A stretch of DNA of 64,000 bases from an uncultured Syntrophobacterales bacterium. GTDB taxonomy: Bacteria; Desulfobacterota; Syntrophia; Syntrophales; UBA5619. Position 1 is the first letter of the stretch; each line of letters starts with the position of its first letter. Location: positions 17,005 to 81,004 of the forward strand of contig CAIYSL010000068.1 of NCBI GenBank assembly GCA_903928915.1. Direction: 5' to 3'. Shown piece after piece: positions 2 to 51,318 of the stretch. The notes beneath the pieces were generated by a model. It made no database searches. It was given only the letters and a program-made list of their open reading frames with translations, and was not told where the DNA came from. Made by a program: the position numbers and the translations under genes.

Positions 2-1196
2 GGCGCGGGCGAGGTCAAACACGAGCAGATAGGCCGTGACCTCCAGGGCAACCGGGTGTGGTCGGAGATCATCGCCCTGCCGATCAAGAACGACGAGGGC
101 GCCGTCGTTTCGGCACTGGAAATCGTCATTCCCGTCACCGAGCGCAGGAATACGGAGTACGCCTTTCGGGCCATCCACGCCATCTCCCAGGCCGTCAACC
201 GCTCGCTCGACCTCGAAACGGTGTTGGACGCCGCGCTGGCAAACGTCATAGAGCTCTTTGCGCCTAATTCCGCCTTCATCCGCCTTCTCGACCCGATCAC
301 CAAGAGACTGGTATTTGCCGCCCAGAAGGGACTCACCGCCGAAGAGCTGGCGCTGCTGAACAAGTCGCAGGACCGGGGGGAGGGCATTACCGCGCTTGCC
401 GTCGATTCAAACGAGATAGTCGTCATCGAGGATATCCTGGCCGATCCGCGGACGGCGAATAAGATGGGTTTCTCGCGGCGGATCGGCTGCCGGTCCGTCG
501 TGTCGCTCCCCCTGTTTGCCAAAGAAAAACTGGTCGGGAACATGAGCTTCCGCACCCGCGAGCCGCGGCCCTATTCCCGGGAGGAGATCGACCTGTTCCG
601 CTCGATCGGCCATCAGATCGGCGTGGCGATCGAGAACGCCACGCAGCAGCGATCATCTGCTGTCGCTGATCAACGATATGCTCGACCTGGCCAAGGTGGA
701 AGCGGGGAAGGAGGCGCTCCTGCTGGCGGAGGTCAAGCTGCCGGAGCTCCTGGAGGAATGCCTGGCCCTGTTCAGGGAACGAACGGCGGCGTGGGACATC
801 CGGTTATCCTTGGACGCAGGCGACTGCCCCGCAGAAGTCCGTGCCGATCGCCGCAAGCTCAAGCAGGTCCTGTTCAATCTGTTGTCCAATGCCGTGAAGT
901 ACACCGCCGACGACGGGCGGGTGTCGCTGAGCGTGCGGAAGCGCCCGGGGGAAGTGGAGATCCGGGTGGCCGATTCAGGCATCGGCCTGCGGCCGGAGGA
1001 CCGGGAGCGGATCTTCGAACCCTTCGAGCAGGTGGAGGACCCGGCCAGCCGCAGGTTCCCGGGCGCCGGCCTGGGGTTGTCGCTGTCCAAACGGTTGGTG
1101 GAGCTGCACGGCGCCAGGATCTGGGCGGAAAGCAACGGGCTCGACCGGGGGAGCACCTTTGCGTTCACGATCCCGTCGGGCACACCTCCACGGTGA
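2..1196 (+). pseudogene. PAS/GAF sensor histidine kinase, 5' end outside window, internally disrupted (phospho-acceptor H-box region missing, frame change near 645-660)
   Basis: Frame 2 is open from the window edge. It reads a PAS-like tail (RDLQGNRVWSEIIALPIKNDEGAVV) and then a GAF domain ending IGVAIENATQQ. Frame 3 continues SDHLLSLINDMLDLAKVEAGK (distal part of a HisKA/DHp helix) followed by HATPase_c boxes (LLSNAVKYT, DSGIGL, GAGLGLS). No H-box is present in any frame between the two parts. Confidence 0.6.
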
Positions 1197-3261
1197 TGCC
1201 GTGCATGATCGCTGCCGCGGCGGGCGCCGTCCCGCCGGTCGCGGTGAACATGTTGGCCGAACCTCCCCGGTCCCTCCCCTCTCCATCGAGGCTGACCCAG
1301 ATACCCTCCGGCAGCGAGACCACCCCGGGCATGACCTCCGCCGAGATGCGGGCGGCGATACGCCCCTCGCCCCGGGCGTTGAACACGCGGACCCTGTCGC
1401 CCTCCCTGATCCCGCGGCTGGCGGCGTCGGCGGGGTGCATGGTCAGGGCGTGCGCGTTCCTCCCGGAGAGGCGGATGAAGTTGCTCTGCGAGTGGGTGTA
1501 GTGGCGCGATTTCGGGGTGATCATGCGCAGCGGGTAGCCCTCTTCCGCGGGCGGCTGCTGCCAGGTCGGGACGGCCGGAAACCCCGTTTCCCGTCGGTAC
1601 CGGTCGCTGGCGATCTCGATCCGGCCCGAGGGGGTGTCCAGGGGGTTTTGCTCCGGGTCGGTCGCGAAGGCGGCCAGGCCGACCCGCTCCGCTGCGGGGC
1701 CCCGGTAGATCCCGGTGCGGCGGAAGGCATCCGGGTCGGGTATTTCGGACAGGGCGATAAACCGCTCCACCCAGGCGGCTGCCGAGCGTCCCTCCGAGAA
1801 GGCCGCGCCGAACCCGAGCCGGTCCGCCAGCTCCCAGAGGGCGTCGTAGTCGCTGCGCGCCTGCCCGCGCGGGGCTGCGGCCGCGGGTTTGTACAACAGA
1901 TAGTTGCCCCCCCAGGGGAGGCCGATGTCCTCCTTTTCCAGCGCCGTGGCTGCCGGGAAGAGCACATCGCACTGCAGGGCCGTGGGCGTCAGGAAGACCT
2001 CGTGGCTCACCGCGAACTCGAGCTTCGCGAAGGCGGCGATGCTCTTGGTGATGTCCGCCCCCTGGTTGACCGGGTTGCCGCCCAGGTTGTACAGCGCGCG
2101 TACGTCGGAGGGATAGCCTCCGGCGCGCCCCGCCAGGATTGCGTCGGGCCAGCGGACGATCGGCAGCGAGGGCTGCGGCGCCGCCGGCGGGATTCCCAAC
2201 CGGCCGACCCGGGGGAGGGGCAGGAGCCGGTTGCTCGCCCCCGTGGACCCGCCGGCCGCCCCGAAATTGCCCGTGGCGGCCTGCAGCGCCACGGTCAGCC
2301 GGTACGGCTCCTCGCCGGCGAACACCCGCTGGATTGAATAGCCCGGAATCAGCATGGCCGGTTTGGCCGCGGCATAGGCCCGCGCGAAGGCGACGATCTC
2401 CTCCGCAGGGGCGCCGCAGATCTCAGCGGCCCAGCCGGGCGTGCAGGCCGGGCCCCCTTCCTGCCCCCGCACGTACCGTTCGAGCCGGTCGAACCCGACA
2501 CAGTGGCTGTCGACGAACGGCCGGTCCAGGAGGTCCTCCGTGCTCAGGACATTAAGCACGGCCAGCATCAGGGCCGCGTCGGTCCCGGGGCGGCAGGGGA
2601 TCCACCAGGCCCCGGTGCGCTCGGCCGTGAAGGAGCGGCGCGGGCCGACGACCACGATCCGGGCGCCCTGCCGGGCGGCGTCGATCAGCCTCCGGTCCAT
2701 CTCGGCGCCCATGCGGGTTTCGAGGACATTTGCCCCCCACAGGACGATCATCCGTGAGCGACGCATCGTCGCCGCGTCATGCCCGGAGTGGATCCAGTCG
2801 CTGCCGAGGAGGTAGGGGAGGGTGAACAGCATCGCGGCATTGCTGTAGTTTCCCGTCAGGCGCGTGCTCCCCCCGAAGAGGTTCATGAACCGGGTCAGCA
2901 GGACGTGGGTGCCGTGGAGCGCCCCGGTCACCGCGAACCCGCTGAAGGACATGACTGCGTGCGGACCGTGCTCGGCACGGATTTCCCCCAGCTTCCGGGC
3001 GGTGATCGCCAGCGCCTCGTCCCAGTCTGCCGGCCGGAACGCCCCGGAGCCGCGGGGGCCTGTCCGTACCAGCGGCGTGAGGATCCGGTCGGACGCCGCG
3101 GTCTCGCGCGGCAGCGCCAGCCCACGCGGGCAGCCGCGAATGTACCTTCCGCCGGCCGGGTTGTACCGGACGCGTTCCACCCGGCCCGCCTCGACGACCG
3201 CCTGCAGCGGACAGGCGTTTCCGCCGCAATCCTTACCGCAGAATGTCGGGATGAGAGCCAT
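1165..3261 (-). CDS. molybdopterin (bis-MGD) oxidoreductase, DMSO-reductase superfamily, cytoplasmic (no Tat signal), substrate unknown
   Basis: 727-aa track ORF. The likely true start is the ATG at 3261 (MALIPTFCGKDCGGNAC), preceded by GGGAGGGAAGGA. It has an N-terminal Cys cluster and long collinear similarity to molybdopterin oxidoreductases (GANVLETRMG, IVVVGPRRS, C-terminal MopB_CT-like PEGIWVS). The 29-codon upstream extension is Arg/Gly/Pro rich and non-coding in character. Confidence 0.85.
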   Translation of the reverse strand: MALIPTFCGKDCGGNACPLQAVVEAGRVERVRYNPAGGRYIRGCPRGLALPRETAASDRILTPLVRTGPRGSGAFRPADWDEALAITARKLGEIRAEHGPHAVMSFSGFAVTGALHGTHVLLTRFMNLFGGSTRLTGNYSNAAMLFTLPYLLGSDWIHSGHDAATMRRSRMIVLWGANVLETRMGAEMDRRLIDAARQGARIVVVGPRRSFTAERTGAWWIPCRPGTDAALMLAVLNVLSTEDLLDRPFVDSHCVGFDRLERYVRGQEGGPACTPGWAAEICGAPAEEIVAFARAYAAAKPAMLIPGYSIQRVFAGEEPYRLTVALQAATGNFGAAGGSTGASNRLLPLPRVGRLGIPPAAPQPSLPIVRWPDAILAGRAGGYPSDVRALYNLGGNPVNQGADITKSIAAFAKLEFAVSHEVFLTPTALQCDVLFPAATALEKEDIGLPWGGNYLLYKPAAAAPRGQARSDYDALWELADRLGFGAAFSEGRSAAAWVERFIALSEIPDPDAFRRTGIYRGPAAERVGLAAFATDPEQNPLDTPSGRIEIASDRYRRETGFPAVPTWQQPPAEEGYPLRMITPKSRHYTHSQSNFIRLSGRNAHALTMHPADAASRGIREGDRVRVFNARGEGRIAARISAEVMPGVVSLPEGIWVSLDGEGRDRGGSANMFTATGGTAPAAAAIMHGITVEVCPTGS

Positions 3262-3581
3262 CGATCGTCCTTCCCTCCCGCCGGAAGGCGGGTGTGCCGC
3301 GGTTCGCCTCCCCGCACCTTGACCGGGAGGAATCCGCAGACACCGCACTGGGCGTTCGGGATTCTCCGCTCCGGTGCGATCGGGCAGCCAATCGGAAACG
3401 GCTGCACCGTAGCGTTCCTCCGGCTATTCAATCCGTTTATCCGGCACGGTTCCCCGTGTCAAGCTCCGTTTGGCGATGCCGGGCCGGCAAGCCGCCGAAA
3501 CGATCCAATTCTGCAGAGAAAACGACATCGTCATCGACAGAGGGCGTGAGCACCGGAACAAAATCGTGTCGCAAATAATGG

Positions 3582-9648: not shown

Positions 9649-9831
9649 TCAGCCGCGTGCCGGCTGATCTGCGCAGCCCCGGGTGGCGATCGCCGGCGGC
9701 GCGGCGGTCTCCCCCGGCGTCCGGTCGAGTTCCTTTCCGACCGCCAGCCCCAGCCGCTCCTTCACGGAGGGCTTCCGCTCATAGGCGCCGACGCCCAGGA
9801 TGACGGAGACACTCCGATAATCCAGGACCAT
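9649..9831 (-). CDS. candidate 60-aa small protein, no recognisable family
   Basis: The ATG lies 2 nt after the stop of the upstream FrnE-like gene, with GAGGAGAA/GAGG upstream. The stop lies 12 nt before the GH13 ATG. Third codon positions are strongly G/C-biased, as in neighbouring genes. No homology recognised. Confidence 0.35.
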   Translation of the reverse strand: MVLDYRSVSVILGVGAYERKPSVKERLGLAVGKELDRTPGETAAPPAIATRGCADQPARG

Positions 9832-9833: not shown

Positions 9834-10451
9834 TCAGGTTCTCCTCTTCACCCCGTTGTCCAGGAGGAGTTTTTCGAGGGTCTCGTAGGGCTGCGCCCCG
9901 ACCACGGCCCAGCCGTCGAGAAGGAAGGTCGGGACCGCCGTGATGCCCAGCTGCGCCGCCAGGTCCCAGTCGGCATCGACGGCGTCGCGGAAGGCGCGTG
10001 TGCGCAGGACTTCTGCGGCCCCGCTGCCGGGAAGGCCCGCCGCCTCGGCAAGTGCGACCAACTCCCCGGGCTCGGCGATGTTGGTCCCGGCTACGTAGTA
10101 GGCCCGAAAGACGGCGCTGTGATACGCATCGCCCTTTCCCTCGCACTCCGCCCATTTGCCCAGCTCCGTGGCGAGCCTGCTGTTGTAAGTCATCGTCCGG
10201 TCGCCGAGCGGCAATTCCGCCTCGGCGGCCGCCCGGCGCTGACGGGCCTTCAGCTCCTGGGGGTCGAGGTTCCGGCCGGCGTAGAGCGTCTCCAGAGAGA
10301 GCCCCTCCTCCGGGGTGTCCGGGTGCAGGGGAAAGGCCCGCCACCGGATTTCGATGGTAAAGTTGTTCCGCAGTCGTTCAATACGCCCGGTACTGAAGTA
10401 GCACCAGGGTCAGACGTAATCGGAAAAGACCTGAAGAATTCTTGTCGTCAT
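9834..10451 (-). CDS. DsbA/FrnE-like thiol oxidoreductase, predicted selenoprotein (UxxC; TGA at 10410-10412)
   Basis: ATG at 10451 preceded by AGGGAGGG. Translation reads MTTRILQVFSDYV-TGA-PWCYFSTGRIERL... and stays in frame, without further stops, into the 126-aa track ORF. The TGA occupies the first Cys of the family's SD(F/Y)VCPWCY motif. A stem-loop lies directly 3' of the TGA. Confidence 0.75.
10386..10409 (-). promoter_or_regulatory. candidate bacterial SECIS hairpin
   Basis: mRNA CCCUGGUGCUACUUCAGUACCGGG immediately follows the UGA. It folds as an 8-bp stem (one G-U pair) with a bulged U and a 7-nt loop. The loop lacks the G-rich apex of the E. coli fdhF SECIS, so the assignment is tentative. 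Confidence 0.4.
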
Positions 10452-10703
10452 GGGGCCCTCCCTGATCTTCCTGCTTCTCGCACATTCCCGGGGCGGTAAC
10501 TAGTCCGCAGCGGCCGGGAGGGACGGGCGGCCGGACCGTTGGCGCGGCCCTGCCTGGATCGCAGGCGGACCTCCCGGGAAGCGGGTCTTCAATCCGGACG
10601 GGCAAGACGCCGACGGCCGTCGTGGGCAGGGGAAAGGGATGGCGCGCCGTCCCGCTTTTGCGGGAACGGAGCGTACCGCGGGCGAATGCCGGTCCCGCGC
10701 CTT

Positions 10704-11524: not shown

Positions 11525-14500
11525 ATGAAGAGATCGTACGTCGGTGTGCCCCTGTATGTGATCGCGATGACATTCGTCGGCGCCCTTCTGGCAGCGCCGC
11601 AGACCCTGGGCGCCCAATCCGCGGAGGAGTACCGGTTTGTGGCGAAATGGGGTCCTCCCGATTTCACGCGAGACGGAAACGTTAAGAACCCCCAAGGGAT
11701 AGCGGTCGATACCGCAGGCGCTGTCTACGTCGCCGATACGGGGAACCACCGCATCCAGAAATTCACCTCTGCCGGCAGCCTCAGCCTGAAATGGGGGGCA
11801 CAGGGCAGCGGCAACGGGCAGTTCAGTTCCCCGGCGGGAATTGCGGTCGACTCCGGCGGGGGCGTCTATGTCGCCGATACGGGGAACCATCGCATCCAGA
11901 AGTTTTCCTCGTCGGGCGTTTTCACCCTGACGTGGGGTTCACGAGGGGCCGGGGACGGACAGTTCTCTTCTCCCGGGGGGGTGGCTGTCGACGCCGCGGG
12001 AAATGTCTATGTCGCTGATACCGGGAACCATCGCATCCAGAAATTCAGCCCCTCGGGAACATTCCTCACCAAGTGGGGCTCCCAAGGGACGGGCAGCGGA
12101 CAGTTCTATTGGCCGAGCGGCGTAGCCGTCGACGCCACGGGCAGCAATGTCTATGTGGCTGATACCTATAACAATCGCATCCAAAAATTCACCTCGTCGG
12201 GGGCGTTCGTTACCAAGTGGGGCCAGTATGGCCGCTGGGTCCCCATGCAGGGTGAGTTCCAGTTGCCTCAAGGGGTGGCCGTTGACACCTACGGCTATGT
12301 CTATGTCACCGATCATGACAACAATGCAGTCCAAAAATTCGGCGCTTCCGGCAGCTACGTAATGGAATGGTATGGACAGGGAGACGCGCATCTGCAGGGG
12401 CCTTTCGGTATCGCCGCTGACACCGCGGGCAATGTCTATGTAGCGGATCAGCATGCATCAGCCATTCAAAAGTACACCAATCTCGGCGAGTCGCGCGCAA
12501 GGTGGGGAAACCAAATCCCCGAAGGCCAACTGGGAAATCCCGCGGGCATCGCCGTCGACGATGCGGGAAACGTCTACATCCACGACAGGTATAACTTCGG
12601 CATCGAGAAATTCTCCCCCGCGGGAACCTTCATCACCAGGTGGGGCTCATGGGGGCTCGGTGTCGGGTTGGGAGGCGGGCATTTCGAGCTTCCCAGAGGC
12701 GTGGCCGTCGACGGCATGGGGTATGTATACGCGATAGACTCCTGGAACGACACCGTGCAGAAGTTTTCTTCTTCGGGATCGTCAATCATCCACTGGGGGT
12801 CATTGGGGGCAGGCAACGGACAGTTCGATTATCCGGTAGATGTCGCCGCTGATGCGGAGGGAAATGTCTATGTCGTCGACAGCAACAACGTCTGCATCAA
12901 GAAATTTACCTCGTCGGGAGCCTTCATCACGAAATGGGGTTCGCGGGGGACAGGGGATGGGCAGTTCGATTACGCTCCCAATGCCATTGCCGTCGACCGC
13001 GCGGGGCATGTCTATGTCGGCGAGGGCCCTCTCATCCAGAAATTTACCTCGACGGGGACCTTCATCGGCAAGTGGGGTTCAAACGGAACCGGTGACGGAC
13101 AACTCAAATGCATATCCGGGATAGCGGTCGATGCCGCGGGATATGTCTATGTCACTGATACCTGTAATAACCGCATCCAGAAATTCACCTCCTCGGGGAC
13201 ATTCGTCGCCAAGTGGGGCGCACTGGGTTCGGATGACGGCAATTTCAGTGCTTATGGCCCGGACAGGATAGCCGTCGACGCCGACGGGAACGTGTATGCC
13301 ACCGATCCTGCGGCCTGGACCGTTCAAAAGTTTGCTCCTGCCGCGTCGTCCGCATCCGGTATCCCCCTCTACTTCCCCCACATCGCCACAAGCGGAGGCT
13401 GGCAGACGGAGATCGCCGTCATCAACACCAGCGGCAGCCAGACCGTAAACGGAACGCTGAAGGGCTACAGCGATCAGGGGCAGGCGGTCGAGACCAAACC
13501 CGTGACGCTTCCCCCGCATGGCCGAAGAGAGGTCGTCGTTGCCGGCGAGTTTACCAACCACGCGAGCATCGGGTACATCGTCTACGAAGCGGATTCAAGC
13601 ACCGTCCAGGGCTACACGAAGCTTTACAGCAGCGCGGGCGCCTATCGTGCCGCCTTCCCTGCCGTGAAAGAAGTCAATACCGGGGATGTGTACGTCCCCC
13701 ACATCGACGTGACCGCCGAATGGCGGACCATACTCAGCCTGTTGAACACCACTTCGTCGACGAAGACCCTCACGCTCACGTTCAACAGCGGACTTACCCA
13801 GCAGATAGCTCTCGGGGCCAACGAACATCGGACATTCGACATCATGCGGGATTTCTTCTCCAGCCAGCCTCAGCCGGGCATCAAATCGGCGGTGCTCAGG
13901 AGTGCTGGCGGCATCGTCGGGTTGGAGATGTTCGGCAATGCCAACAACCAGCAGTTGGACGGCATTCTCCTGACGGACAAGACCGCTCAGACCCTGTACT
14001 ACCCGCATGTCGATACGAACGGATGGTGGACGGGCATCGTAGCCTACAACCCGTCAAGCTCGGATAGCACCATAATGATCCGGCCCTACGACAGGTATGG
14101 GACCCCCCTTACCCCGATGGTCGATACCATCGGGGCGGGAACCAATTATGTCCGTGCTATTCCGCTTCAACTGGGCCTTTCCGCCAATGCTGCCTGGTTC
14201 AAGATAGACTCTCCGCAGCCGCTCTCGGCATTCGAGCTGTTCGGCAGCAGCGACGGTAACCAGTTAGGTGCCTATGCGGGCAACGGCAGCGCAGGGTCGC
14301 GGTCGGGGGTATTCGCCAAGATCGAGAAGCGGGGCTGGACCGGGATTGCCTTTGTGAATACCGAGGACGGCGCCGCGACCGTCACCCTGACCGCGTACAA
14401 CAACTCCGGCGCCGTCGTGGCCACGAGTGTGCTTTCGGTCGGCGGCCGTGCCAAGGAAGTCCGGGTTGCCGAAGCGATGTTCAGCCAGGATGTGAGCAGC

Positions 14501-14599
14501 GCCACCTACATAGGCTTCAGTTCGGACCGGAACGTTGTGGGGTTTCAGCTCAACGGCAGTTCTGACTGGCTGATGCTTGACGGGCTGCCGGCGCTGTAG
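11525..14599 (+). CDS. secreted NHL-repeat protein (two six-bladed beta-propellers) with a C-terminal four-fold repeat of unknown family
   Basis: N-terminal signal-like segment. Twelve ~47-aa NHL units of consensus KWGSxGxGxGQFxxPxGIAVDxxGNVYVADTxNHRIQKFTSSGxF, followed by four ~105-aa repeats. Confidence 0.9.
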   Translation: MKRSYVGVPLYVIAMTFVGALLAAPQTLGAQSAEEYRFVAKWGPPDFTRDGNVKNPQGIAVDTAGAVYVADTGNHRIQKFTSAGSLSLKWGAQGSGNGQFSSPAGIAVDSGGGVYVADTGNHRIQKFSSSGVFTLTWGSRGAGDGQFSSPGGVAVDAAGNVYVADTGNHRIQKFSPSGTFLTKWGSQGTGSGQFYWPSGVAVDATGSNVYVADTYNNRIQKFTSSGAFVTKWGQYGRWVPMQGEFQLPQGVAVDTYGYVYVTDHDNNAVQKFGASGSYVMEWYGQGDAHLQGPFGIAADTAGNVYVADQHASAIQKYTNLGESRARWGNQIPEGQLGNPAGIAVDDAGNVYIHDRYNFGIEKFSPAGTFITRWGSWGLGVGLGGGHFELPRGVAVDGMGYVYAIDSWNDTVQKFSSSGSSIIHWGSLGAGNGQFDYPVDVAADAEGNVYVVDSNNVCIKKFTSSGAFITKWGSRGTGDGQFDYAPNAIAVDRAGHVYVGEGPLIQKFTSTGTFIGKWGSNGTGDGQLKCISGIAVDAAGYVYVTDTCNNRIQKFTSSGTFVAKWGALGSDDGNFSAYGPDRIAVDADGNVYATDPAAWTVQKFAPAASSASGIPLYFPHIATSGGWQTEIAVINTSGSQTVNGTLKGYSDQGQAVETKPVTLPPHGRREVVVAGEFTNHASIGYIVYEADSSTVQGYTKLYSSAGAYRAAFPAVKEVNTGDVYVPHIDVTAEWRTILSLLNTTSSTKTLTLTFNSGLTQQIALGANEHRTFDIMRDFFSSQPQPGIKSAVLRSAGGIVGLEMFGNANNQQLDGILLTDKTAQTLYYPHVDTNGWWTGIVAYNPSSSDSTIMIRPYDRYGTPLTPMVDTIGAGTNYVRAIPLQLGLSANAAWFKIDSPQPLSAFELFGSSDGNQLGAYAGNGSAGSRSGVFAKIEKRGWTGIAFVNTEDGAATVTLTAYNNSGAVVATSVLSVGGRAKEVRVAEAMFSQDVSSATYIGFSSDRNVVGFQLNGSSDWLMLDGLPAL
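11636..13342 (+). repeat. 12 tandem intragenic NHL units (~141 nt each)
   Basis: Recurrent nucleotide core GTCTATGTCGCCGATACGGGGAACCAYCGCATCCAGAAATTCAC, visible at about 11716, 11866, 12006, 12150 and 13147. These are coding repeats, not a CRISPR array. Confidence 0.85.
13361..14596 (+). repeat. four tandem ~105-aa repeats (motif [YV]-x-P-H-[IV]-[AD]-x(3,4)-W-x-T-x-[IL]-x(3)-N-[TP]-[ST])
   Basis: The repeats start at LYFPHIATSGGWQTEIAVINTS, VYVPHIDVTAEWRTILSLLNTT, LYYPHVDTNGWWTGIVAYNPS and a degenerate GVFAKIEKRGWTGIAFVNTE. Each continues with alternating beta-strand-like patterns. Confidence 0.7.
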
Positions 14600-18780: not shown

Positions 18781-19677
18781 TCAGTGGGGTTTGCGCCCCT
18801 CCCGTTTCAGTTTGCGCATCTCCGCCAGGAGCTTGTCGTAGTCCTCGCCCGCCGGGAGCGGCTCATTGCCGCCGGCGGCATCGTACTGTTCCTCCAGTTT
18901 CTTGAGCTGCTCCAGGGCCGTGGCATTCTTGCTGAAGGCCGTATCCATCATCTGCACCAGCGTGCTGCCGGCCTCCCAGAGGTCGTTCAGGTCCACGTCG
19001 AGGCCGGTCAGGGCCAGGACGTTCTTCAGCAGATCGTAGCAGGCCTTCGCGTTCAGGTCCTGGATGTACAGCGGCACCCGCGCGGAGATGCCCGCCATCT
19101 CCACCTCCTGCTCGCGGGCGGCGGAGATCAGCAGCGTGTTGAAACTGGCCGGCCCTTCGTAATCGGTGAACCGGGCGAAGGGGGCAAGATCGTCCTTCAG
19201 CCGCGGGTGGCTGACCGTGGCCATGATCCTCGTCTTCCTGGTGTGCGGGACCTGGTCGAAGATGCCGCCCAGCAGATAGACCCGCGGCGACGCATACTGC
19301 CGGGCCACGGCGAGGATCGCCTGGGCGAATGCCGGCCAGTCCAGGTTCGGCTCGGCGCCCAGAAACAGGATGAGGTCGTGGGCGCCGCCGCTCTTCCAGA
19401 AGAAGAAGTCGTTGCGCGGCATCTCGATCTTCCGCACGATCCCCTCCTTGATCCGGGCCGGGGGGCGCAGGGTTTGCTCGGCGCCGGAGCTCGGGATCTG
19501 ATAGAGGTAAAACCCCGTCGGCTCTATGGAGGCGAACGCGCGCGCCCCGAGTTTGAGACGCAGATAGTCGACGCATCCCGTGGATACATCGCCCGCGTTC
19601 AGCCAGCCCTTGAGGCCGGCCAGGATGTACGGGGCGCTGAGTTGGGGTTTCTCCTGCAGTACGAGACGCCCTTCCAT
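18781..19677 (-). CDS. PAC2 (proteasome assembly chaperone 2-like) family protein
   Basis: ATG at 19677 preceded by GGGAAGGA. YILAGLKGWLNAGDVSTGCVDYL and LFLGAEPNLDW are typical of bacterial PAC2/COG2047 proteins. C-terminal coiled-coil tail. The 88-codon upstream extension in the track is Arg-rich and not coding-like. Confidence 0.75.
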   Translation of the reverse strand: MEGRLVLQEKPQLSAPYILAGLKGWLNAGDVSTGCVDYLRLKLGARAFASIEPTGFYLYQIPSSGAEQTLRPPARIKEGIVRKIEMPRNDFFFWKSGGAHDLILFLGAEPNLDWPAFAQAILAVARQYASPRVYLLGGIFDQVPHTRKTRIMATVSHPRLKDDLAPFARFTDYEGPASFNTLLISAAREQEVEMAGISARVPLYIQDLNAKACYDLLKNVLALTGLDVDLNDLWEAGSTLVQMMDTAFSKNATALEQLKKLEEQYDAAGGNEPLPAGEDYDKLLAEMRKLKREGRKPH

Positions 19678-20288
19678 GCCGTCCTTCCCTGCTCCTTCGC
19701 TACGTGCCGCCCACCGGGCGCGGTACCGGTCACCTCTCCTTATTGGAGTTCGCCTTCGGCGTCGTGTCCGGCGTGTTCTCAGAATAACGGAAAAGAGGCC
19801 GCCCTGACAAGAAGAAATATTTCTGTTTCCGGCGGTCCGGCCGATGTGTATCCCGATTACGGGAATCGGTGAGCGATCCGGGCAGAGCCTCGGAAGGAAC
19901 GTCCTGTCGGTCGAGCGGTCATTTCCTTCTCCCATCGTCAATGAAATGGCTATGCGTCACTAGTGACGTTTTTCGCGAAAAGGGAAACCGTGCTGATTGC
20001 TTTCAAAAAGACTGGTGCGAAATCATGAACATGTGAACAAATCTCCAGTATCTCACTTATACATTATCAATAGCATCCATTAGGCACAGAACGTGCTTAC
20101 GTACCATCGAGATGCTTTAAAGGTTTCCAAGCGGATGCCGATCAGCTTGAATTGACTGGATGACAGCCCCTTAACCGGACAGGCGAGTCCAAGACTGAAC
20201 AGGAAGGCGGAAAGGAGTCTCATACATGAAGGCAGGAAGGAACAAAAAACAGGCGGGCAATCCCGTATCAAAAACAGAGGCGGGGGTT

Positions 20289-22376
20289 ATGAAACCGCGT
20301 GGGGGGGTAACGCGGCGAGATTTTATGAAATATTCGGCCGGAACCGTCGCCTGTCTTTCTTTGGGTTCATTACCCTATGGATGTGGTAGCAGTAACTATG
20401 CACCACAAGTCGCGGGATACCCGATTGATGCCAGGGTTGTAAAAACCACCGAGCGAATGATCGCATTTCCGTATATTGCGGCTTCTGCAGCCCCCCAGCC
20501 GGGTAAGATGCCTAAGCCGGGAGACTCGGCTTTTCCGGCTTCCAGCCCCAACGGCGGGACTGCGCTGACCTGGGATCAATTGTGCCAGATTCAAAACTAT
20601 GACAGACTGGGTTATGGCAAGTGGATATACGTAGACTGGCCCCTCCCGCTCGTGCAGCGGACGGATATCATGCCGGCTAGCTACAATGCCGCAGCCGTCA
20701 CCCCAAAAGCGAGGCTGCTTAACTTTTTCGCCATGACGGATATCCACCTTACCGACAAGGAAGCGCCAAACCAGCTGATCTGGCTCCAGCAGAGTCTTCC
20801 CGGTTACGCCGGGCAAAACAGCTCCATCTACTCGGGGGTCATGCTGTACACCCCCCAGGTCTTCGACGCCGCTATTCAGACGGCAAACGCCCTGCACAAG
20901 AAGAACCCCTTTGACTTCTTCATCTCGCTGGGGGACGTCTGCAACACGAGCATGTACAACGAGCTCAGGTGGTATCTGGACATCATTGACGGCAAGGTCA
21001 TTACCCCCAGTTCCGGCGACCATCGTGGCGCAGACAGCATTGATTATCAGAAGCCGTTCCAGGCAGCGGGTCTGGACAAATCGATCCCGTTCTATCAGAC
21101 CCTCGGTAACCATGACCATTTCATGATCGGTTCGTTCCCTGTCTATGAGTCCGGCCTCGACGGGTCATACATCAGCGATACGGTCTGGTCGGTGTCGAAT
21201 AAACTGCTCACCCCCGTGCCGACCTTTCCGGCCAATATCAACAAGAACAACATCAATGACCCGGATGCAAGATTTTACCAGGGCGTCATCGATGGCACGA
21301 CCCGGTACGGCACCATCAGTAAATCAGGAGCAGTCGGGAGTTATGGCACGCCTCCAAAGGTTGTTGCCGATCCCAACCGCCGTTCACTGCATAGAACGGA
21401 ATGGATTCAGGAGTTTTTCAACACAGCGACCAGTCCGGTTGGCCATGGTTTTAATCTGGTTGCATCCAACCCGAATCTTGGCCTGGTTCCTGCCAACGAA
21501 AGAGCCGGGTTTGCCTGTTACAGCTTTGTGCCCAAGTCGAATGTCCCGCTGAAGGTGATCGTGCTGGACGACACGCAGCGGGAAGACGACGGGTCGGTCG
21601 ACATTCACGGCCACGGGTTTCTTGACGCAACGCGCTGGGCCTGGCTTCAGGCCGAACTTGCAGACGGTCAGGCTGCCAATCAGCTGATGATCATCGCGGC
21701 CCATATCCCGATTGCGGTCGTAAACCCCGGCACTGAGCTAGAATGGTGGCTTGGTGGCTATGATGCTGTTACGAATCCGTTCGGTGACAGGTCTACTACA
21801 ACAAAGAATGCATGTACACTGAAGGAACTGGTTGATACCCTTCAGAACACGACGAACCTGCTGATGTGGATCGCCGGGCATCGCCATGTCAATCACGTTA
21901 AGGCTTTTGTATCGCCTGACCCCGTCAACGCACCCGAAAAAGGATTCTGGCAGGTGGAAAGCTCGTCGTTGCGTGATTTTCCGCAGCAGTTCCGAACTTT
22001 TGAGATCTATCTCAACAGTGACTATACCATTTCAATCGAGGCGGTTAACGTTGATCCGGCAGTTGCGGAAGGAACGCCGGCCGCAACATCGCGAACGTAT
22101 GCGATCGCAACGCAGCAGATACTCCAGAATCCGTTGAAGGCGAATCCTCCGAACTATCAGACGATGTATCATATGGATTTGGGACCGACAGACCCAACCC
22201 GGCTGCGGGGTGGTGACCCACTCAATCAAGGATCAGGAGATGCATATACAGACCCGTCAATCCAGTTTGTTGATCTGACCTCAAAAGGGGTCCCGTACAA
22301 CGCCTCATACAATGCCCAGCTGTTCAAACAATTGAGCCCGGCGATGAAGACACATCTGCGGACACTGTTCCCCTAA
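20289..22376 (+). CDS. Tat-exported metallophosphoesterase (resembles the TIGR03768 RPA4764-type family)
   Basis: Twin-arginine signal MKPRGGVTRRDFMKYSAG. Calcineurin-like motifs I-V: MTDIHLTD, SLGDVCN, LGNHDH, IIAAHIPI, AGHRHVNH. An alternative upstream ATG lies at 20226. Confidence 0.8.
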   Translation: MKPRGGVTRRDFMKYSAGTVACLSLGSLPYGCGSSNYAPQVAGYPIDARVVKTTERMIAFPYIAASAAPQPGKMPKPGDSAFPASSPNGGTALTWDQLCQIQNYDRLGYGKWIYVDWPLPLVQRTDIMPASYNAAAVTPKARLLNFFAMTDIHLTDKEAPNQLIWLQQSLPGYAGQNSSIYSGVMLYTPQVFDAAIQTANALHKKNPFDFFISLGDVCNTSMYNELRWYLDIIDGKVITPSSGDHRGADSIDYQKPFQAAGLDKSIPFYQTLGNHDHFMIGSFPVYESGLDGSYISDTVWSVSNKLLTPVPTFPANINKNNINDPDARFYQGVIDGTTRYGTISKSGAVGSYGTPPKVVADPNRRSLHRTEWIQEFFNTATSPVGHGFNLVASNPNLGLVPANERAGFACYSFVPKSNVPLKVIVLDDTQREDDGSVDIHGHGFLDATRWAWLQAELADGQAANQLMIIAAHIPIAVVNPGTELEWWLGGYDAVTNPFGDRSTTTKNACTLKELVDTLQNTTNLLMWIAGHRHVNHVKAFVSPDPVNAPEKGFWQVESSSLRDFPQQFRTFEIYLNSDYTISIEAVNVDPAVAEGTPAATSRTYAIATQQILQNPLKANPPNYQTMYHMDLGPTDPTRLRGGDPLNQGSGDAYTDPSIQFVDLTSKGVPYNASYNAQLFKQLSPAMKTHLRTLFP

Positions 22377-22425
22377 GGAAAGCAACTGTCTGCGTGGTTA
22401 GTGAAGAAGCCAACCGGGAATTGTG

Positions 22426-22479
22426 AGCGAAAAAAGGCTCAACAAGCAGAGAAAACGCAAGTTGAGCCCTTTTTTCGCT
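22426..22479. terminator. long hairpin flanked by A6/T6 runs (bidirectional intrinsic terminator shape)
   Basis: AGCGAAAAAAGGCTCAAC - 17 nt - GTTGAGCCCTTTTTTCGCT, located 50 nt after the stop at 22376. Confidence 0.6.
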
Positions 22480-22530
22480 ATGCAAAGAGCGATGCCGGAT
22501 AATACGCCCGAGCGATAAGAAAGGTCATCC

Positions 22531-23049
22531 GTGAAACTGTTCAAAGCCATCAAGAACGATTATTTGAAAATTCTTCCGCCAATGATTTATTTCTTCGTCG
22601 CCTTTGTCCTGATCCTGACGACCAAACGAATGATTCTCAGCGAGTATCAAATCTCCTGGACAGGTTTTGGCACGGCGGTTGTCGGCGCCATCCTTGCCGG
22701 CAAAGTGGTGCTGATGGTGGACAAACTGCCCTTTGTCAACCAATTTCCTGATCGGCCGCTGGTCTATAATACGCTTTGGAAAAGCCTTCTTTACTTTCTG
22801 GCCGCGCTGGTTGTCAGTTATCTGAATCAACTCGTTCACTTTCTTCGCAAGCACGAAGGCCTGATGGAAGCAAACCGGCATCTATGGGCTGAAGTGGTAT
22901 GGCCCCACTTCTGGCTTTTGCAGATGTGGCTGGCGGTGCTCTTCCTGATCTTCTGCGCCATGCGGGAACTGATCCGCGTCATCGGCAGAGATAAATTTAT
23001 CCGAATGTTTTTCCGAGTGCGAATTAATAATAGTGAAGGCGGCGTTTAA
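22531..23049 (+). CDS. 4-TM membrane protein of unknown function
   Basis: GTG start. Four hydrophobic segments. The stop overlaps the ATG of the downstream DNase II-like gene by 1 nt (TAATG). Confidence 0.6.
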   Translation: MKLFKAIKNDYLKILPPMIYFFVAFVLILTTKRMILSEYQISWTGFGTAVVGAILAGKVVLMVDKLPFVNQFPDRPLVYNTLWKSLLYFLAALVVSYLNQLVHFLRKHEGLMEANRHLWAEVVWPHFWLLQMWLAVLFLIFCAMRELIRVIGRDKFIRMFFRVRINNSEGGV

Positions 23050-24365
23050 TGAAGCCATCTTCTGAATTGATGGGCAGGGCCATCCGCAACTTCAAGCGAA
23101 AACTCCGCGGGCTCGCCCCGCTGGCCTTAGCACTTGTCCTGCTCGTTTCCCTCAACTCTGCGTGCAGCTCGTCCCCGACTGCTCCATCCGCGCCGGTGCC
23201 GCTTCTTTTTGCCGGTCACCCCGTCGACTGGTGGTTTGTCTTCAAATTCAACTCCGCCAACTTTCCCGAATGCGGCGGAGCTGCCGCGCGTGCCTGCCTG
23301 TTCGGTGGCGAGGTGCAGCAATACTCTCCGTCGTTTGGGCAGCAGTTCGTCTATGCCAGCAATGAAGATGAAGCGCTCCTGGACGGTTCCGGTTGTCTGG
23401 GCGACACCGCCAAGGACCCCGTCGGCGCCACCTTCGATGCGGTGTACAACGGTGACTTCAACTACGTTGTTTGGAACGACCAATTCTACGGCGACCCGCA
23501 GATCGAAGGCTGCACCACGTCTTGCGCCTCTCCCTGGGGCCACTCGAAGGGCATGTTGGCCTGGAATGCCCGGGGTGACGGCCTGGTCATGCAGGTCTCA
23601 ACCCCCTCCTGGCCCGCCGCTGGAAGTAAGTCTTCGCCCCGGCAAACCGACGGCAACACCCTGGGCTGCGTCAAGGACAACAATCTGCTGGTAAGCCAGC
23701 ATTTCTTCGCGCTTAGACTTTCGAAGGATGACGTCGTCAAGGTCCTCACTGCTCTGGTCAACGTCGGCATCGTCACCGACCCCTCGAATCCGCAAATCGT
23801 GCGCAATGGCGGTCCGGTGGACATCCGGCAACTGGTCGGCGCACTCGGCAAACAATCTGCCAGCCGCACCCATATCACCGCCACCCTCTCCAGTGGCGTC
23901 GTGCTGATCTCGAAACCATCGAATCTGCACGTTCCGCCATGGCAGATGGTCTCCGCCATTCTTGGCGGAATTTCCCTGCGTACCGCCACCTGGTGGACCG
24001 ACCCGGAGATCAACTCGACCACCGAATCCACGACCATCGGCTGCTGGGACTCATCGCTCAGCAAACCGGGTGCGGTTGAAATCGCCACCACCGGACAGTG
24101 GAGGAGCCAGACGCTCGGCCTTACCGGCGGGGAGGGTACCGACTTCAACCATGCCAAGATCGGCATTTCCACCTCCGGCGTCGAACCCTATGCCATCTTC
24201 GGTGATATGAATCAGCAGGGCACTCTGTCGGGTCCCAGTTGCGGCAGCAGCCAGAACGGGCGCGGCGGACTTTTCTATGTACTCAAAAACCGGAAACTCC
24301 ACGACAATATCGCGCAATTGATCTCCGGGGCATCGGCGCCTGTGCATGCCAGCCAAGCAAACTGA
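23049..24365 (+). CDS. DNase II family (PLD-superfamily) nuclease, lipoprotein
   Basis: Lipobox LVSLNSAC. Collinear with eukaryotic DNase II: PVDWWFVFKF (PVDWFVVYKLP), WNDQ...GHSKGMLAW...VSTPSWP (YNDQ...GHTKGVL...HSVPNFP), and NHAKIGIS...FGDMNQQ...GRGG (DHSKWCVS...VGDMNRNQ...RGGG). Both HxK motifs are present. Confidence 0.8.
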   Translation: MKPSSELMGRAIRNFKRKLRGLAPLALALVLLVSLNSACSSSPTAPSAPVPLLFAGHPVDWWFVFKFNSANFPECGGAAARACLFGGEVQQYSPSFGQQFVYASNEDEALLDGSGCLGDTAKDPVGATFDAVYNGDFNYVVWNDQFYGDPQIEGCTTSCASPWGHSKGMLAWNARGDGLVMQVSTPSWPAAGSKSSPRQTDGNTLGCVKDNNLLVSQHFFALRLSKDDVVKVLTALVNVGIVTDPSNPQIVRNGGPVDIRQLVGALGKQSASRTHITATLSSGVVLISKPSNLHVPPWQMVSAILGGISLRTATWWTDPEINSTTESTTIGCWDSSLSKPGAVEIATTGQWRSQTLGLTGGEGTDFNHAKIGISTSGVEPYAIFGDMNQQGTLSGPSCGSSQNGRGGLFYVLKNRKLHDNIAQLISGASAPVHASQAN

Positions 24366-24485
24366 ATCAATGGGGGATGGAGGAAGCGTAAAATGACAGG
24401 TGAGAGACCAATTAACGCCCAAGCTGTCTTACCGCGTAAATAACGATTTCCGCTAGCCACGGAACGGATCATTCAAGGAGGATTT

Positions 24486-25946
24486 GTGAAGGTAAAGAAG
24501 ATTTCGGTCATGCAGTTGCTGTTCTTAATGTTTGCCCTGGCTCTGGTTGCCGGATGCGGCGGTTCCGATTCCAATCCAGGCAGTGCGTTAAGCGCCGACA
24601 ATGTCAATTTGATCTTCGTGGTAAGCCCGGATTTGGCCAATCACGCGCAAGGCGACATCAATCCGGACACGGCAAACCTCACCAATCAGGGACTACACCG
24701 TTCGCTGCTCATGGCCACGTACCTGAAAACGCAGATACTGGGGACAAACAACGTAACCGGTATTTACGCACTCGCACCGATGACGCATTTGCAGACCGCA
24801 AACAAATATCCTGACATGACAGCAATCGGGTTCATTCAGCAGTTTGCCCTTCTCAACCAGATCACGCTACCCCTTTATCCTTCGGGGTCCAACTATACCG
24901 CCAACAGCTACCCGATCAATGCTGCGTATGCTCCAGGGGCCGTGCCCAACGGAGTTCATGTGCCGGCTGCATACTGCCCTGATTGCCGGGGGCTGGATTT
25001 CAACAACACCGGAAGCAACAACGATGCGCTGGTATCCGATATCATCAATAAGAAAATCACCGGTTATTATGTCTTTTCGGCGCCTTGGGAGACAATCAGC
25101 TCCTTGTTGGCAAACATAAATACTCTTTATGGATATAACCTGAATCTGCCGGCAACCTATATGGGTACGAATTATGTCTATGCGATCTCCATCGCTCCGT
25201 CGGGAGAAGCGCGCCTCGTTACCTACGACAGCAATCTGAAGCCGTCCTCTGCTTATCCTGTGCTGCCGGCGCCTGTGGCCAGCGCTTCATGCACACACAC
25301 GCAGCAGGTCTATTTCAGCACCGCACGGACCGGAGGGGTTAGTGGCGCCGTAATTCCGGCGAACATAAACACCAACCAAAGGATCTACATTATCCGGCAC
25401 GCAGAGGCGCATCCGGATCCGGGGAACGGTTTTGAAGACGGCAACTTTGTGGGTGCAGGGCAATGGCGGGCGCTGGCCCTTCCCCGTGCTCTCTCCGGGA
25501 AAATACGTCCCAACATGGTTTATTCCATCGACCCCGCACAGTGGTTCTCTACGGGTTATATCAATGTTTCGTATGTCAGGCCCTCATTAACAGTACTGCC
25601 ATATGTTATTGCGAATAATCTGCCCTATTATCTGGTCTCGAGCTTTGATATTGGAGATCCGAACGAACCCCAGCTTGCCGCTGACTTTTTCTTTACCGGC
25701 GGCACGTTCACCAATCAAACCGTGCTGCTGGCGTGGGAGTCCACACGCATTAAACCGCTGATAAATGCGCTCCTCAACAGCTATGGTGCCAGCGGCCTAC
25801 CGCTCCTCCCGACCACTTGGCCGGGTACCGACTACGAAACTATCTGGACCGTGACGCTTGACGCCCGGGGTAACCTGACGGTGAATAACGAGCTGTGCGA
25901 AGGCATCGACTCCGCGGCGCTGCCGGGAACGGCTCCTCAATTCTGA
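24486..25946 (+). CDS. lipoprotein with a histidine-phosphatase (PGAM/SixA-like) domain in the C-terminal half and a degenerate copy in the N-terminal half
   Basis: GTG start, lipobox LALVAGC. C-terminal half has RIYIIRHAEAHPD (RHG-type motif). N-terminal half has LIFVVSPDLANH at the equivalent place. The distal catalytic His could not be located with confidence. Confidence 0.6.
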   Translation: MKVKKISVMQLLFLMFALALVAGCGGSDSNPGSALSADNVNLIFVVSPDLANHAQGDINPDTANLTNQGLHRSLLMATYLKTQILGTNNVTGIYALAPMTHLQTANKYPDMTAIGFIQQFALLNQITLPLYPSGSNYTANSYPINAAYAPGAVPNGVHVPAAYCPDCRGLDFNNTGSNNDALVSDIINKKITGYYVFSAPWETISSLLANINTLYGYNLNLPATYMGTNYVYAISIAPSGEARLVTYDSNLKPSSAYPVLPAPVASASCTHTQQVYFSTARTGGVSGAVIPANINTNQRIYIIRHAEAHPDPGNGFEDGNFVGAGQWRALALPRALSGKIRPNMVYSIDPAQWFSTGYINVSYVRPSLTVLPYVIANNLPYYLVSSFDIGDPNEPQLAADFFFTGGTFTNQTVLLAWESTRIKPLINALLNSYGASGLPLLPTTWPGTDYETIWTVTLDARGNLTVNNELCEGIDSAALPGTAPQF

Positions 25947-26042
25947 GAGTCAGCGCGGGCAACCTGTCGGGCCTGTGAAACGAATAGAGAGGAAATGATC
26001 ATTAACGCAACATAACTCATTACCAAGAATAGGAGACTCACG

Positions 26043-26468
26043 ATGAAGAAAATTACCGTCAGTGCTATTTTGTTGGTCGTTCTGTTTGGACTGGGGATCT
26101 GCTTTGCAGATTCCGGTATTCCCAACCTGGTAGGAACATGGGCCACACAAGCTGAAGGGGCTGTCCTGCTCAAGGGCGGTGCTCACGGAGCCAAGACCCA
26201 CCACAGAGGCGACTTCAGCACCCTCAAGGGCGAAGTGGTCGTAACCAAGCAACAGGGAAGAGTCCTGCATGGAACATTCAAGTCATCACAAGCCACGGAA
26301 AAATTTGTTGCCGTTATTGCCATGGACAACAAGAGCTTCTACCTTGTCGATGAAGATGGTTTCATGGAAGGCCAGATCAGCAACAAAGATCAGATAACGA
26401 TGATTTATCGTCATTCAAGTCCCACCGATACGGTCGTGGCAGTGGGGACCTGGACGCGGAAAAAATAA
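26043..26468 (+). CDS. small secreted protein, lipocalin/beta-barrel-like, unknown function
   Basis: Signal peptide MKKITVSAILLVVLFGLGICFA. The mature part begins NLVGTW and ends VGTWTRKK, with a beta-rich pattern. Confidence 0.55.
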   Translation: MKKITVSAILLVVLFGLGICFADSGIPNLVGTWATQAEGAVLLKGGAHGAKTHHRGDFSTLKGEVVVTKQQGRVLHGTFKSSQATEKFVAVIAMDNKSFYLVDEDGFMEGQISNKDQITMIYRHSSPTDTVVAVGTWTRKK

Positions 26469-26537
26469 CCCATAAACAGGTAATGATCGTCAATACGACG
26501 ATGCATGCAAGAAAGACAAATTGAATAAGGAGAAGAA

Positions 26538-27832
26538 GTGAGTGCAACAAATGTCGAAACCGTAAGAGGAAAGGGCGCCTTTCCCCATATCCGAAAACTG
26601 GATGGGGGCCGCGCTATCAGCAAAAGACATGCATTGACCACGGTGACCGTATGCGTTCTTGTCCTCGCGCTCGCAATGGCTGGCTGCAATGGTGGCGGAA
26701 ACCAGTCGATCCTCATGGAAAGCGGTCCACGGGTTGGAATGGTCACCACCACCGACGCGGTCATCTCCTGGGACCTCCAATCTTCGTCCCATAGTGCTGT
26801 CAACTACCGGGTTGCAGGGGAACGTGAATTCACCGGCAAGGTTCTGTCGAGCAAGGACACGAAACACCACAGTGTCAAAATCACCAACCTGAGGCCCGGC
26901 ACGGTGCATGAGTTTCAGGTCGACGGGCATCCGACGGTAGGGTCGTTCAGGACTGCGACGACGGATGAGACGCCGTTCGTTTTTGTTTCCATGGCGGATA
27001 ACCGCGGGCAATCCGACCAGGATGATATAAAAGGGCTGCCTCAGTCATTGATCAACATCATCAATGATGCCGTCAAAAGGAGCCCGGTATTTGCCGTGAA
27101 CGCCGGTGATCTCTTCTACGGGAAGAACCCCGACAGCGGCATATTTGAAAAGCTCTATCTCTCCTTCAAGAATGCCATCCAGCCGCTGGCACTAAAAACA
27201 TCCTATCTCATCTCTCCGGGGAACCACGAGATGTCTCCCTTTAAATCATCGACGGATCCCGTAGGGTTCGACGCGGCTGCACTCTTCAACGAGAAATTTC
27301 CACAGCCCGGACCGCTTCCCGGCTACGAAGGATTTGTGTTTTCCTGGGACTGGGGCAAAGTGCACTTTGTTTCCATCGCCACAAACCACTTCGACGCGAA
27401 ATTGCCCCCCCCCACTATGGCATGTACCGCATCAGCGACGCGCAAATTGCATGGCTTGATGCCGACCTGCAGAGCGCCAAGAGCAGGGGATCGCTATTCA
27501 TAATCGTGTTCGGCCACTCGAATGCCTACTCAAAACCGTCATGGCCCGATCCTACTCTTGCTGATCTGAACAACACCGACCCTCTCCAGCGAGACAAGTT
27601 CTGGGCGGTTCTCGTTAAGCATAATGCGGATATTTACGTCTGCGGACACCGCCACTTCTTTGATGATTCAATTACAAAGGATGGAGTTGTGCAGTGGATG
27701 AACGGCAACAGCGGTTCCGTTGTCGGAGGCCCCAATCAGTATACCGTATGGACGGTCAACGGCAGCGCCATCACGGCGGAGCTTGTAGACGACACGGGAA
27801 AAACGACCTATACGAGAACGTTCACGAAGTAG
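26538..27832 (+). pseudogene. purple-acid-phosphatase-like metallophosphoesterase lipoprotein, frameshifted at a C9 tract (27405-27413)
   Basis: Lipobox LALAMAGC and an FN3-like N domain. Motifs I-III (SMADNRG, NAGDLFYG, SPGNHE) lie in frame 0. Motifs IV-V (VFGHSNAY, VCGHRHFF) lie in frame 2, in the 27422-27832 ORF. Ten or seven C residues would join the two parts as ...KLPPPHYGMYRISDAQIAWL... Confidence 0.75.
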
Positions 27833-27903
27833 CAGAAAAGACATATGTCATGAACACGGCCGATGTGCGTGTTCAGGGAGAAATTCCTGGAAAGGGGATT
27901 ACA

Positions 27904-29520: not shown

Positions 29521-29681
29521 TATTCATGAACCGGTTTGCAGCCTGATCGTGACCCTCGGCAGAGAGACACGTTATGGGCTGTTCTCACGAATTTAAGCCG
29601 CCGTGCGCGATTCCCGTGGATGTTGCCTCCCGGCGTGCGTTCGGAGGATGGGATCCCGGTAACACAAAAATGTAAGGAGCA

Positions 29682-47865: not shown

Positions 47866-48614
47866 ACTGCCCCTCCGTGGAGCATCGCTGCCGCGGCGAG
47901 CGCCGGGCCGAGTTCGGCCAGCTCGCAGGCGGCCCCGAGGGTGTCGCCGGTGAGCCCGCCGATCCGGCGGAAGAAATAGGCTGCCAGCAGGAGCGCGGCA
48001 AGAAAGGAAACGGCGCCGGCGATCAGGCCGGGCAGGCGGCCCATGAGAAAACCGGCGGCCAGGAGCGCCGCGAACGCCCAGAGGGCATGCCCCTGCGAAC
48101 GATTCCGGTGAAAGATCCCGGCGAGTCCCCCTTCGGGGCGGACGTAGGGGAGCAGCGCCATGTGGACGATCAGCGCACACCTGCCGGCGAGCGGCGTCAT
48201 GACCAGGACCCACCAGCGCCAGGGGCCGGCGAGCGAGACGAGAAGGCTGGCCTTGAGCAGGACCAGCGCAACCACCGCCGCGACCCCCATCGGGCCGGTG
48301 CGGCTGTCCCGCATGATCTCCAGGACCCGCTCGCGGGGGCGGCCGCTGAACAGCCCGTCCGCCGTGTCGGCGAGCCCGTCGATGTGGAGGCCGCCCGAGG
48401 CGGCGATCAGCAGGATGACCGTAACGACGCTCGTGACCCCGATCGGGAAGAGCAGCCCCAACCCCCAATCCGCCAGGCTGATCGCCGCGCCGATCAGCAG
48501 GCCCACGACAGGGAAGAAGGGGAGGGAGCCCCCGAGGACCCCTTCGCCGGGGGGGCTTCCTCCCGCGAGCGGAATGATCGTCAGGAACTGGACGGCGGCC
48601 AGGAACCGTTTCAT
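47862..48614 (-). CDS. cobS: adenosylcobinamide-GDP ribazoletransferase (cobalamin synthase)
   Basis: AVQFLTIIP...[14 protein letters not shown]..., multi-TM. Confidence 0.9.
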
Positions 48615-51305: not shown

Positions 51306-51318
51306 GAATTATGGCCTA

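Follow-up and report, generated by a model that had tools for sequence, protein, structure and literature searches.

A predicted FrnE-type DsbA-family selenoprotein and its covarying candidate SECIS hairpin in an uncultured Syntrophobacterales bacterium

Introduction

Does an in-frame TGA that follows a start codon after only thirteen codons end a short peptide, or does it specify selenocysteine (Sec)? This question is raised by a minus-strand gene (positions 10451 to 9834) on a 64-kb stretch of DNA from an uncultured Syntrophobacterales bacterium (contig CAIYSL010000068.1, positions 17,005 to 81,004), the whole of which is referred to below as the window. A preliminary description, made from the sequence of the window, had proposed a hidden selenoprotein at this locus. 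The analysis reported here indicates that the gene very probably encodes a 205-residue cytoplasmic FrnE-type protein of the DsbA family in which the redox centre reads U-P-W-C for C-P-W-C, with read-through of the UGA by means of a hairpin at 10397-10377 that would serve as selenocysteine insertion sequence (SECIS).

Results

Gene structure

The gene is made up of the following elements.

9834-10451, minus strand: complete coding sequence of the predicted selenoprotein; 205 codons, codon 14 being Sec, and a terminating TGA at 9836-9834
10456-10463, minus strand: Shine-Dalgarno-like sequence AGGGAGGG, read directly, 4 nt before the start codon
10449-10451, minus strand: ATG start codon, with a Met at the equivalent place in homologues of 79 species
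10413-10448, minus strand: codons 2-13 (TTRILQVFSDYV), β-strand 1 of the thioredoxin fold, upstream of the TGA
10410-10412, minus strand: in-frame TGA, conserved and aligned with the Cys of Cys forms; predicted selenocysteine U14, the attacking residue of UPWC
10401-10403, minus strand: TGC, Cys17, the resolving cysteine of UxxC, invariant across all homologues

The TGA at 10412-10410 is the sole interruption of the 205-codon frame. The thirteen codons from the ATG to the TGA read MTTRILQVFSDYV, and past the TGA the same frame continues with PWCYFSTGRIERL and merges into a 126-aa open reading frame (ORF) started at a TTG (9834-10214). This tail is all that the ORF list of the window contains of the gene. 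Start codon, TGA and open frame were all found where the preliminary description had placed them, and its expectation that gene callers would report a truncated protein is borne out, the public-database records of this gene being fragments of 119 and 126 aa only. The equivalent Met of the homologues often directly follows a stop codon or non-conserved residues.

Conservation of the TGA and the Sec/Cys column

A genome scan with one genome per species returned 80 loci, 79 of which reach the TGA column; all 79, each from a different species, carry a TGA there. A metagenome scan was seeded with a Cys-form query. It gave 79 loci which, despite this seed, have TGA at the column without exception, and no Cys form was returned. 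The TGA is common to 158/158 related loci. It is preceded by (F/Y)SDY(V/I/A/T) in the genome loci, with a Met about 13 codons upstream, while all 79 metagenome loci have the same in-frame TGA behind (F/Y)SDY(V/I) and a start about 13 codons upstream. Judged from these alignments, the recurrence of TGA, upstream peptide and start is far beyond chance. FSDY(V/I) upstream of the TGA is conserved in the 158 loci, and in the codons before the TGA variation is confined to third positions, the first and second being invariant. Purifying selection at the protein level therefore acts on the 13 codons that precede the apparent stop.

In 28 Cys-form proteins, as in the FrnE structure 5CNW, the TGA column is occupied by the first Cys of CPWC; so it is in four Cys-form DNA sequences, with TGC or TGT as codon. 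Two properties expected of a selenoprotein gene are found here: an in-frame UGA aligned with a conserved catalytic Cys, and coding conservation on both sides of a UGA that is kept in other organisms. We take it as almost certain that the TGA at 10412-10410 specifies an active-site selenocysteine. Of the 120 top-ranking database homologues, 28 read SDYI-C-PWCY, 24 read SDYI-W-PWCY and 68 are N-terminally truncated and begin just after the CxxC.

Protein family and predicted function

When the TGA is translated as Cys, the product of 205 aa matches the Pfam DSBA family PF01323 with 109.5 bits (cut-off 25.6) over positions 2-190 of the 191 of the profile. It has the full-length DSBA-like thioredoxin domain above threshold that characterizes FrnE-type members, and the CP(W/F)C active site is present as U-P-W-C with Sec first. 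The nearest solved structure is FrnE of Deinococcus radiodurans (5CNW, E = 2.6e-20), whose SDIACPWCY aligns on the SDYV-U-PWCY of the window protein; the TGA therefore falls on the N-terminal, attacking residue of the CxxC. Both the assignment to DsbA/FrnE-like oxidoreductases and the placing of the TGA exactly on the first CxxC cysteine in the preliminary description agree with these results, including the alignment of the TGA column with homologues that it had recommended as a check.

Residue 6 is the first of the Pfam domain, and residues 14-17 form the redox motif. As judged from sequence alone the protein is predicted to be cytoplasmic and to lack a signal peptide, because a motif beginning at residue 14 leaves no space for one. 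It also lacks a C-terminal CxxxxC, ending with ...LLLDNGVKRRT, and outside the motif contains a single Cys, C103, which is not conserved. Members of the FrnE type are DsbA-family proteins with a CP(W/F)C motif and a predicted cytoplasmic location. In vitro the Deinococcus protein isomerizes disulfides and reduces insulin; the corresponding mutant shows sensitivity to cadmium and diamide, and the C-terminal CxxxxC of the protein has been proposed to regenerate the active site (PMC8945050). By analogy the window product would be a cytoplasmic selenol/thiol-disulfide oxidoreductase, and the reductase/isomerase activity of Deinococcus FrnE may extend to it. In catalysis Sec14 would attack the substrate disulfide and Cys17 would resolve the mixed selenenylsulfide.

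No dedicated NCBIfam model was found for the family. The best match, with 33.2 bits against a curated cut-off of 190, is to the Rcas_1661 thioredoxin-like (seleno)lipoprotein family (NF041057), which shares the thioredoxin fold, the occurrence of Sec members and weak similarity over the C-terminal 95 residues; membership in this lipoprotein family was rejected. No neighbouring gene is common to more than five of the 79 loci compared. A 60-aa ORF (9649-9831, minus strand) begins 2 nt past the stop of the selenoprotein gene, and public assemblies annotate it as a gene. Neither Pfam nor NCBIfam gave a match for it, conservation outside the same organism was not found, and it is probably not a real partner gene.

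The proposed SECIS hairpin

Two mutually exclusive hairpins can be drawn downstream of the UGA. Their positions are numbered from the U of the UGA.

10377-10397, minus strand: proposed SECIS hairpin, starting 12 nt after the UGA
10397-10390, minus strand: its 5′ arm, UUCAGUAC
10389-10385, minus strand: its loop, CGGGC
10384-10377, minus strand: its 3′ arm, GUAUUGAA
10383-10410, minus strand: hairpin proposed earlier, with stem +2..+12 / +18..+29 and loop ACUUC

The first consists of an 8-bp stem (+15..+22 / +28..+35) and the loop C-G-(G/U)-G-C (+23..+27). Synonymous sites and covariation were analysed in an alignment of 80 species anchored on codons. Frozen third codon positions are limited to the stretch +15 to +35, namely +17 C and +29 U (80/80 each), +26 G (77/80), +23 C (74/80) and +32 U (72/80). 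The covariation score over the first seven pairs is 0.180 compared with 0.098 in shuffles, and 24 cells have changed on both sides of a pair where 4.7 are expected; in both respects none of 500 shuffles scored as high. RNAalifold independently predicted the same hairpin. Six of the eight pairs are kept in 100% of 152 unique Sec sequences, in which the following exchanges occur.

Pair +18/+32: A-U 136, G-C 9, G-U 5, U-A 1, U-G 1
Pair +20/+30: U-A 137, C-G 14, U-G 1
Pair +22/+28: C-G 151, U-A 1

A quick neighbour-joining tree of the remainder of the protein distributes the switches at +20/+30 over 11 separate clades and those at +18/+32 over 13, numbers that may be overcounts with a tree of this kind. 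The switches therefore do not go back to one inherited event. Protein-level selection is no explanation either, since +20 is a synonymous site and yet covaries with an Ile/Val change four codons away. In Sec forms the loop codon is always GGG or GUG, for Gly or Val, while Cys forms have A, G, P, V, R or S as the encoded residue. In two diverged Cys forms (L164 and L167) three of the seven pairs checked have been lost through synonymous changes, and with them the hairpin.

The published bacterial SECIS (bSECIS) model calls for a loop of 3-9 nt that starts with G[G|U] and has a G within its first two positions, a stem of 4-16 bp and a spacing of 16-37 nt between UGA and loop (PMC13188914). The hairpin conforms to it with a 5-nt loop, an 8-bp stem, G(G/U) at loop positions 2-3 and a spacing of 20 nt. 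We propose that the hairpin at 10397-10377 is the SECIS of the gene and that it would be bound by SelB.

A number of observations weigh against the proposed interpretation. Taken alone the hairpin is weak (-6.5 kcal/mol, z = -1.5) and does not reach the minimum free energy of -7.5 kcal/mol or lower that the bSECIS model uses as cut-off; only 14 of 159 family members attain this value. Possibly this cut-off is intended for structures longer than the core hairpin scored here. About 30% of the sequences have U.U at one central pair, +19/+31. An Rfam scan found no matching family, and a sensitive search of 10300-10480 gave just chance snoRNA matches with E > 4. The Cys-form control comprises only four DNA sequences, two of which (L165 and L166) keep the hairpin. 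Moreover, the overlapping hairpin at 10410-10383 is more stable in free RNA (-14.8 kcal/mol), and outside the locus itself neither the Sec machinery (selA, selB, selD and tRNA-Sec were sought in the window and in 10 kb past its right end) nor a second selenoprotein gene (sought within the window) was found. The last two points each support a different account of the locus and are taken up below.

The two Cys forms that keep the hairpin, L165 (gene 259-879) and L166 (gene 294-1025), have TGT at the Sec column, and their SECIS hairpin is intact and does not differ from the consensus of the Sec forms, which suggests that they are very recent Sec-to-Cys conversions.

The overlapping hairpin at 10410-10383

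The preliminary description had located the SECIS in the 24 nt directly 3′ of the TGA. That this segment folds was confirmed; the role as SECIS was not, covariation being found instead in the overlapping hairpin downstream. The upstream structure (about 11 bp with one bulge) is the minimum-free-energy structure, and the 76-nt stretch around it reaches -22.4 kcal/mol with z = -2.8. Across the 80 species it is 90.8% paired. These properties would fit a functional SECIS, or a partner in a ribosome-triggered switch formed by both hairpins together, and yet we consider either role improbable. The covariation is not above that of shuffles, 211 to 274 of 500 scoring as high, and two pairs are broken in 33 and 36 of the 80 species. 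Third-position sites in the 5′ arm (+5 and +11) vary freely. The loop lacks a G and only 10 nt separate it from the UGA, at odds with the published rules for loop and spacing, and 10 of 11 pairs are kept in two diverged Cys forms, which need no SECIS. As a SECIS in its own right the upstream hairpin was therefore rejected.

The footprint of the ribosome is also relevant here. Going by what is generally known of it, a ribosome whose A site is occupied by the UGA would enclose the 5′ arm of the 10410-10383 hairpin, and a hairpin 12 nt downstream of the UGA would sit at the mRNA entrance, like the E. coli fdhF element. In a switch driven by the ribosome, for which we see little likelihood, the strong hairpin, which takes in the last base of the UGA, would hide the SECIS in free mRNA until melted by an arriving ribosome, and SelB would be engaged only on mRNAs under active translation.

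If the downstream hairpin alone is the SECIS, decoding might proceed as follows. A ribosome arrives at the UGA (10412-10410), by which time it would already have melted the stronger hairpin that starts there. The hairpin formed by 10397-10390 and 10384-10377, with its loop CGGGC, would then be just outside the mRNA entry channel, where it could recruit SelB with Sec-tRNA(Sec), and selenocysteine would be inserted instead of termination taking place. The stronger hairpin may be mainly a by-product of coding for P-W-C...T-G.

Sec machinery and the state of the gene

ARAGORN detected no tRNA in the window, Pfam scans of about 30 window genes revealed no SelA, SelB or SelD, and the only match of the Rfam scan of the window was a cobalamin riboswitch. 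Further selenoproteins were sought as coding-like segments that share a frame and have one TGA between them. The three candidates obtained (33782-31689, minus strand; 54663-57161 and 60032-63967, both plus strand) were rejected as simply adjacent genes. The molybdopterin oxidoreductase at 1165-3348 starts MALIPTFCGKDCGG and has no in-frame TGA.

The gene might accordingly be pictured as a dead or truncated relic in an organism without Sec machinery, in which the TGA terminates translation after 13 codons and a downstream start yields at most a fragment lacking the active site, much like the 119-aa and 126-aa records of the databases. We regard this as very unlikely. No part of the gene has decayed: the Shine-Dalgarno sequence, the start codon, the 13 codons ahead of the TGA, the TGA itself and a SECIS that agrees perfectly with the consensus are intact and are identical in three independent assemblies. 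The 64-kb window represents a small part of the genome, so that the absence of sel genes from it weighs little. The closest homologues come from genomes of the Deltaproteobacteria/Desulfobacterota type (metagenome-assembled genomes), a group that is among the most selenoprotein-rich bacteria (PMC13188914). Markers of an anaerobe are present in the window in the form of an aldehyde:ferredoxin oxidoreductase and a cbi-type cobalamin pathway. No Sec machinery being found in the window or the adjacent 10 kb, we therefore infer Sec decoding in this organism from the intact gene, its start signal and the consensus SECIS.

Alternative readings of the TGA

An alternative genetic code, with TGA read as a standard amino acid such as Trp or Gly, would account for the 24 of the 120 best homologues that read SDYIWPWCY. 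We give this next to no credence. TGA is the terminator of 21 of the 35 Pfam-validated genes of the window, the selenoprotein gene included, and as the usual terminator it excludes a reassigned code. The Trp at the Sec column (P0005, P0008, P0014, P0018, P0026, P0038 and others) occurs mostly on short contigs of about 1 kb; the one case checked at the DNA level (P0038 / L168) has TGA, a codon that the standard bacterial code does not translate as Trp. The W entries are thus artefacts of gene calling that took TGA for Trp. In homologues without TGA the column is Cys and never Trp, and a Trp as nucleophile of the CxxC would be inactive. As a side effect, such TGA=Trp gene calls put a false W into the active site of database homologues.

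A sequencing or assembly error in an ordinary Cys enzyme, conceivable in that TGA is one base from TGC or TGT and that recent TGA-to-TGT conversions exist in the family (L165, L166), can be dismissed, since the same TGA is carried by three other independent assemblies of the identical gene (L001-L003), which excludes it, as well as by the 158 related loci.

Discussion

Relation to known systems

The window gene is an unannotated addition to an already described selenoprotein family. A "DsbA-like protein, COG2761, UxxC" was reported in 2005 as a new selenoprotein family with nine sequences in the Sargasso Sea survey (PMC1088965), and in 2006 the family was found in complete genomes, among them those of Anaeromyxobacter dehalogenans, Desulfovibrio desulfuricans and Desulfotomaculum reducens (PMC1794560). 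A 2026 review has the entry "DsbA-like protein form 1, PF01323, UxxC" (PMC13188914). The suggestion in the preliminary description that this class had figured in selenoproteome surveys proved correct, with surveys listing it from 2005 on. Pfam and COG families are the same, as is the UxxC with Sec for the first Cys, and the known members likewise have a SECIS in the coding sequence just downstream and hosts of the anaerobic Deltaproteobacteria type. We see no essential difference; the window gene is an instance from an uncultured high-GC genome.

Deinococcus radiodurans FrnE (DR_0659; PDB 5CNW) resembles the window protein over the aligned residues 7-193, with the CPWC-type site at the same place and no signal peptide. 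It differs in having Cys instead of Sec, a length of 260 aa compared with 205 aa, and the C-terminal CxxxxC (residues 239-244), which is also missing from the FrnE proteins of Streptomyces roseofulvus and D. maricopensis. Periplasmic DsbA of the E. coli type and the window protein have in common the thioredoxin fold, into which a helical domain is inserted, and a CxxC-type centre where helix 1 begins. Classical DsbA, however, carries a signal peptide, has CPHC as its motif and is partnered by DsbB, whereas the window protein has UPWC from residue 14 and no conserved partner nearby.

At the RNA level the proposed SECIS is like the bSECIS model and the E. coli fdhF SECIS in lying inside the coding sequence and in having a small apical loop that contains GG or GU close to its 5′ end. 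The spacer of the fdhF SECIS is roughly 11 nt, which the 12-nt spacer of the window hairpin resembles. Compared with the consensus bSECIS the window hairpin is shorter and weaker (-6.5 versus -7.5 kcal/mol or lower), and it has a central G.U or U.U in place of a bulged U.

Implications

With the TGA read as Sec, a complete redox enzyme bearing its active site is restored where annotation shows just a fragment of 119 to 126 aa. The family as a whole is mishandled in databases, since 92 of the 120 closest entries are mis-called (68 truncated before the active site and 24 with a spurious Trp). It is now provided with a comparatively well-supported SECIS backed by covariation. A SECIS that lies below the usual energy cut-off and is overlapped by a stronger decoy is a practical warning for prediction that starts from the SECIS. 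The general knowledge of selenoproteins is unchanged by these results.

Other features of the window

The cobalamin riboswitch (51137-51318, 105.6 bits) heads a minus-strand operon for cobalamin biosynthesis and cobalt uptake (30803-51318). Its genes encode His_Phos/CobC-like, CobU, CobT, CbiB, CbiA, CbiM, CbiQ and CbiD proteins, four tetrapyrrole methylases and CbiJ. One ORF of this operon (45301-48468, 1055 aa) joins a class I/II aminotransferase to CbiA and GATase_3 (CobQ-like) domains.

A region of about 10 kb (20001-30000) forms a low-GC island, with a GC content of 0.50-0.55 compared with 0.62-0.71 around it, and was probably acquired horizontally. It contains three large ORFs without a Pfam match (20226-22376, 24486-25946 and 26538-27503), a homologue of bacterial DNase II (23049-24365, PF03265), a metallophosphatase and a DUF3089 protein.

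Between the selenoprotein gene and this island, a 386-aa protein (18781-19941, minus strand) matches the PAC2 family with E = 1e-36. A 1024-aa protein (11525-14599, plus strand) carries repeats of the form '...GNHRIQKF...G.F...WG..G.G.GQF..P.G(I/V)AVD..G.VYV(A/T)D...', which from their sequence look like NHL/β-propeller repeats, followed by a non-repetitive C-terminal half. Towards the right end, 54663-59001 (plus strand) and about 5 kb beyond the window comprise genes for acetolactate decarboxylase-like, Fe-alcohol dehydrogenase (Fe-ADH) and aldehyde:ferredoxin oxidoreductase (AFOR) proteins, and public contigs show, just past the window, a 949-aa fusion of AFOR and Fe-ADH domains.

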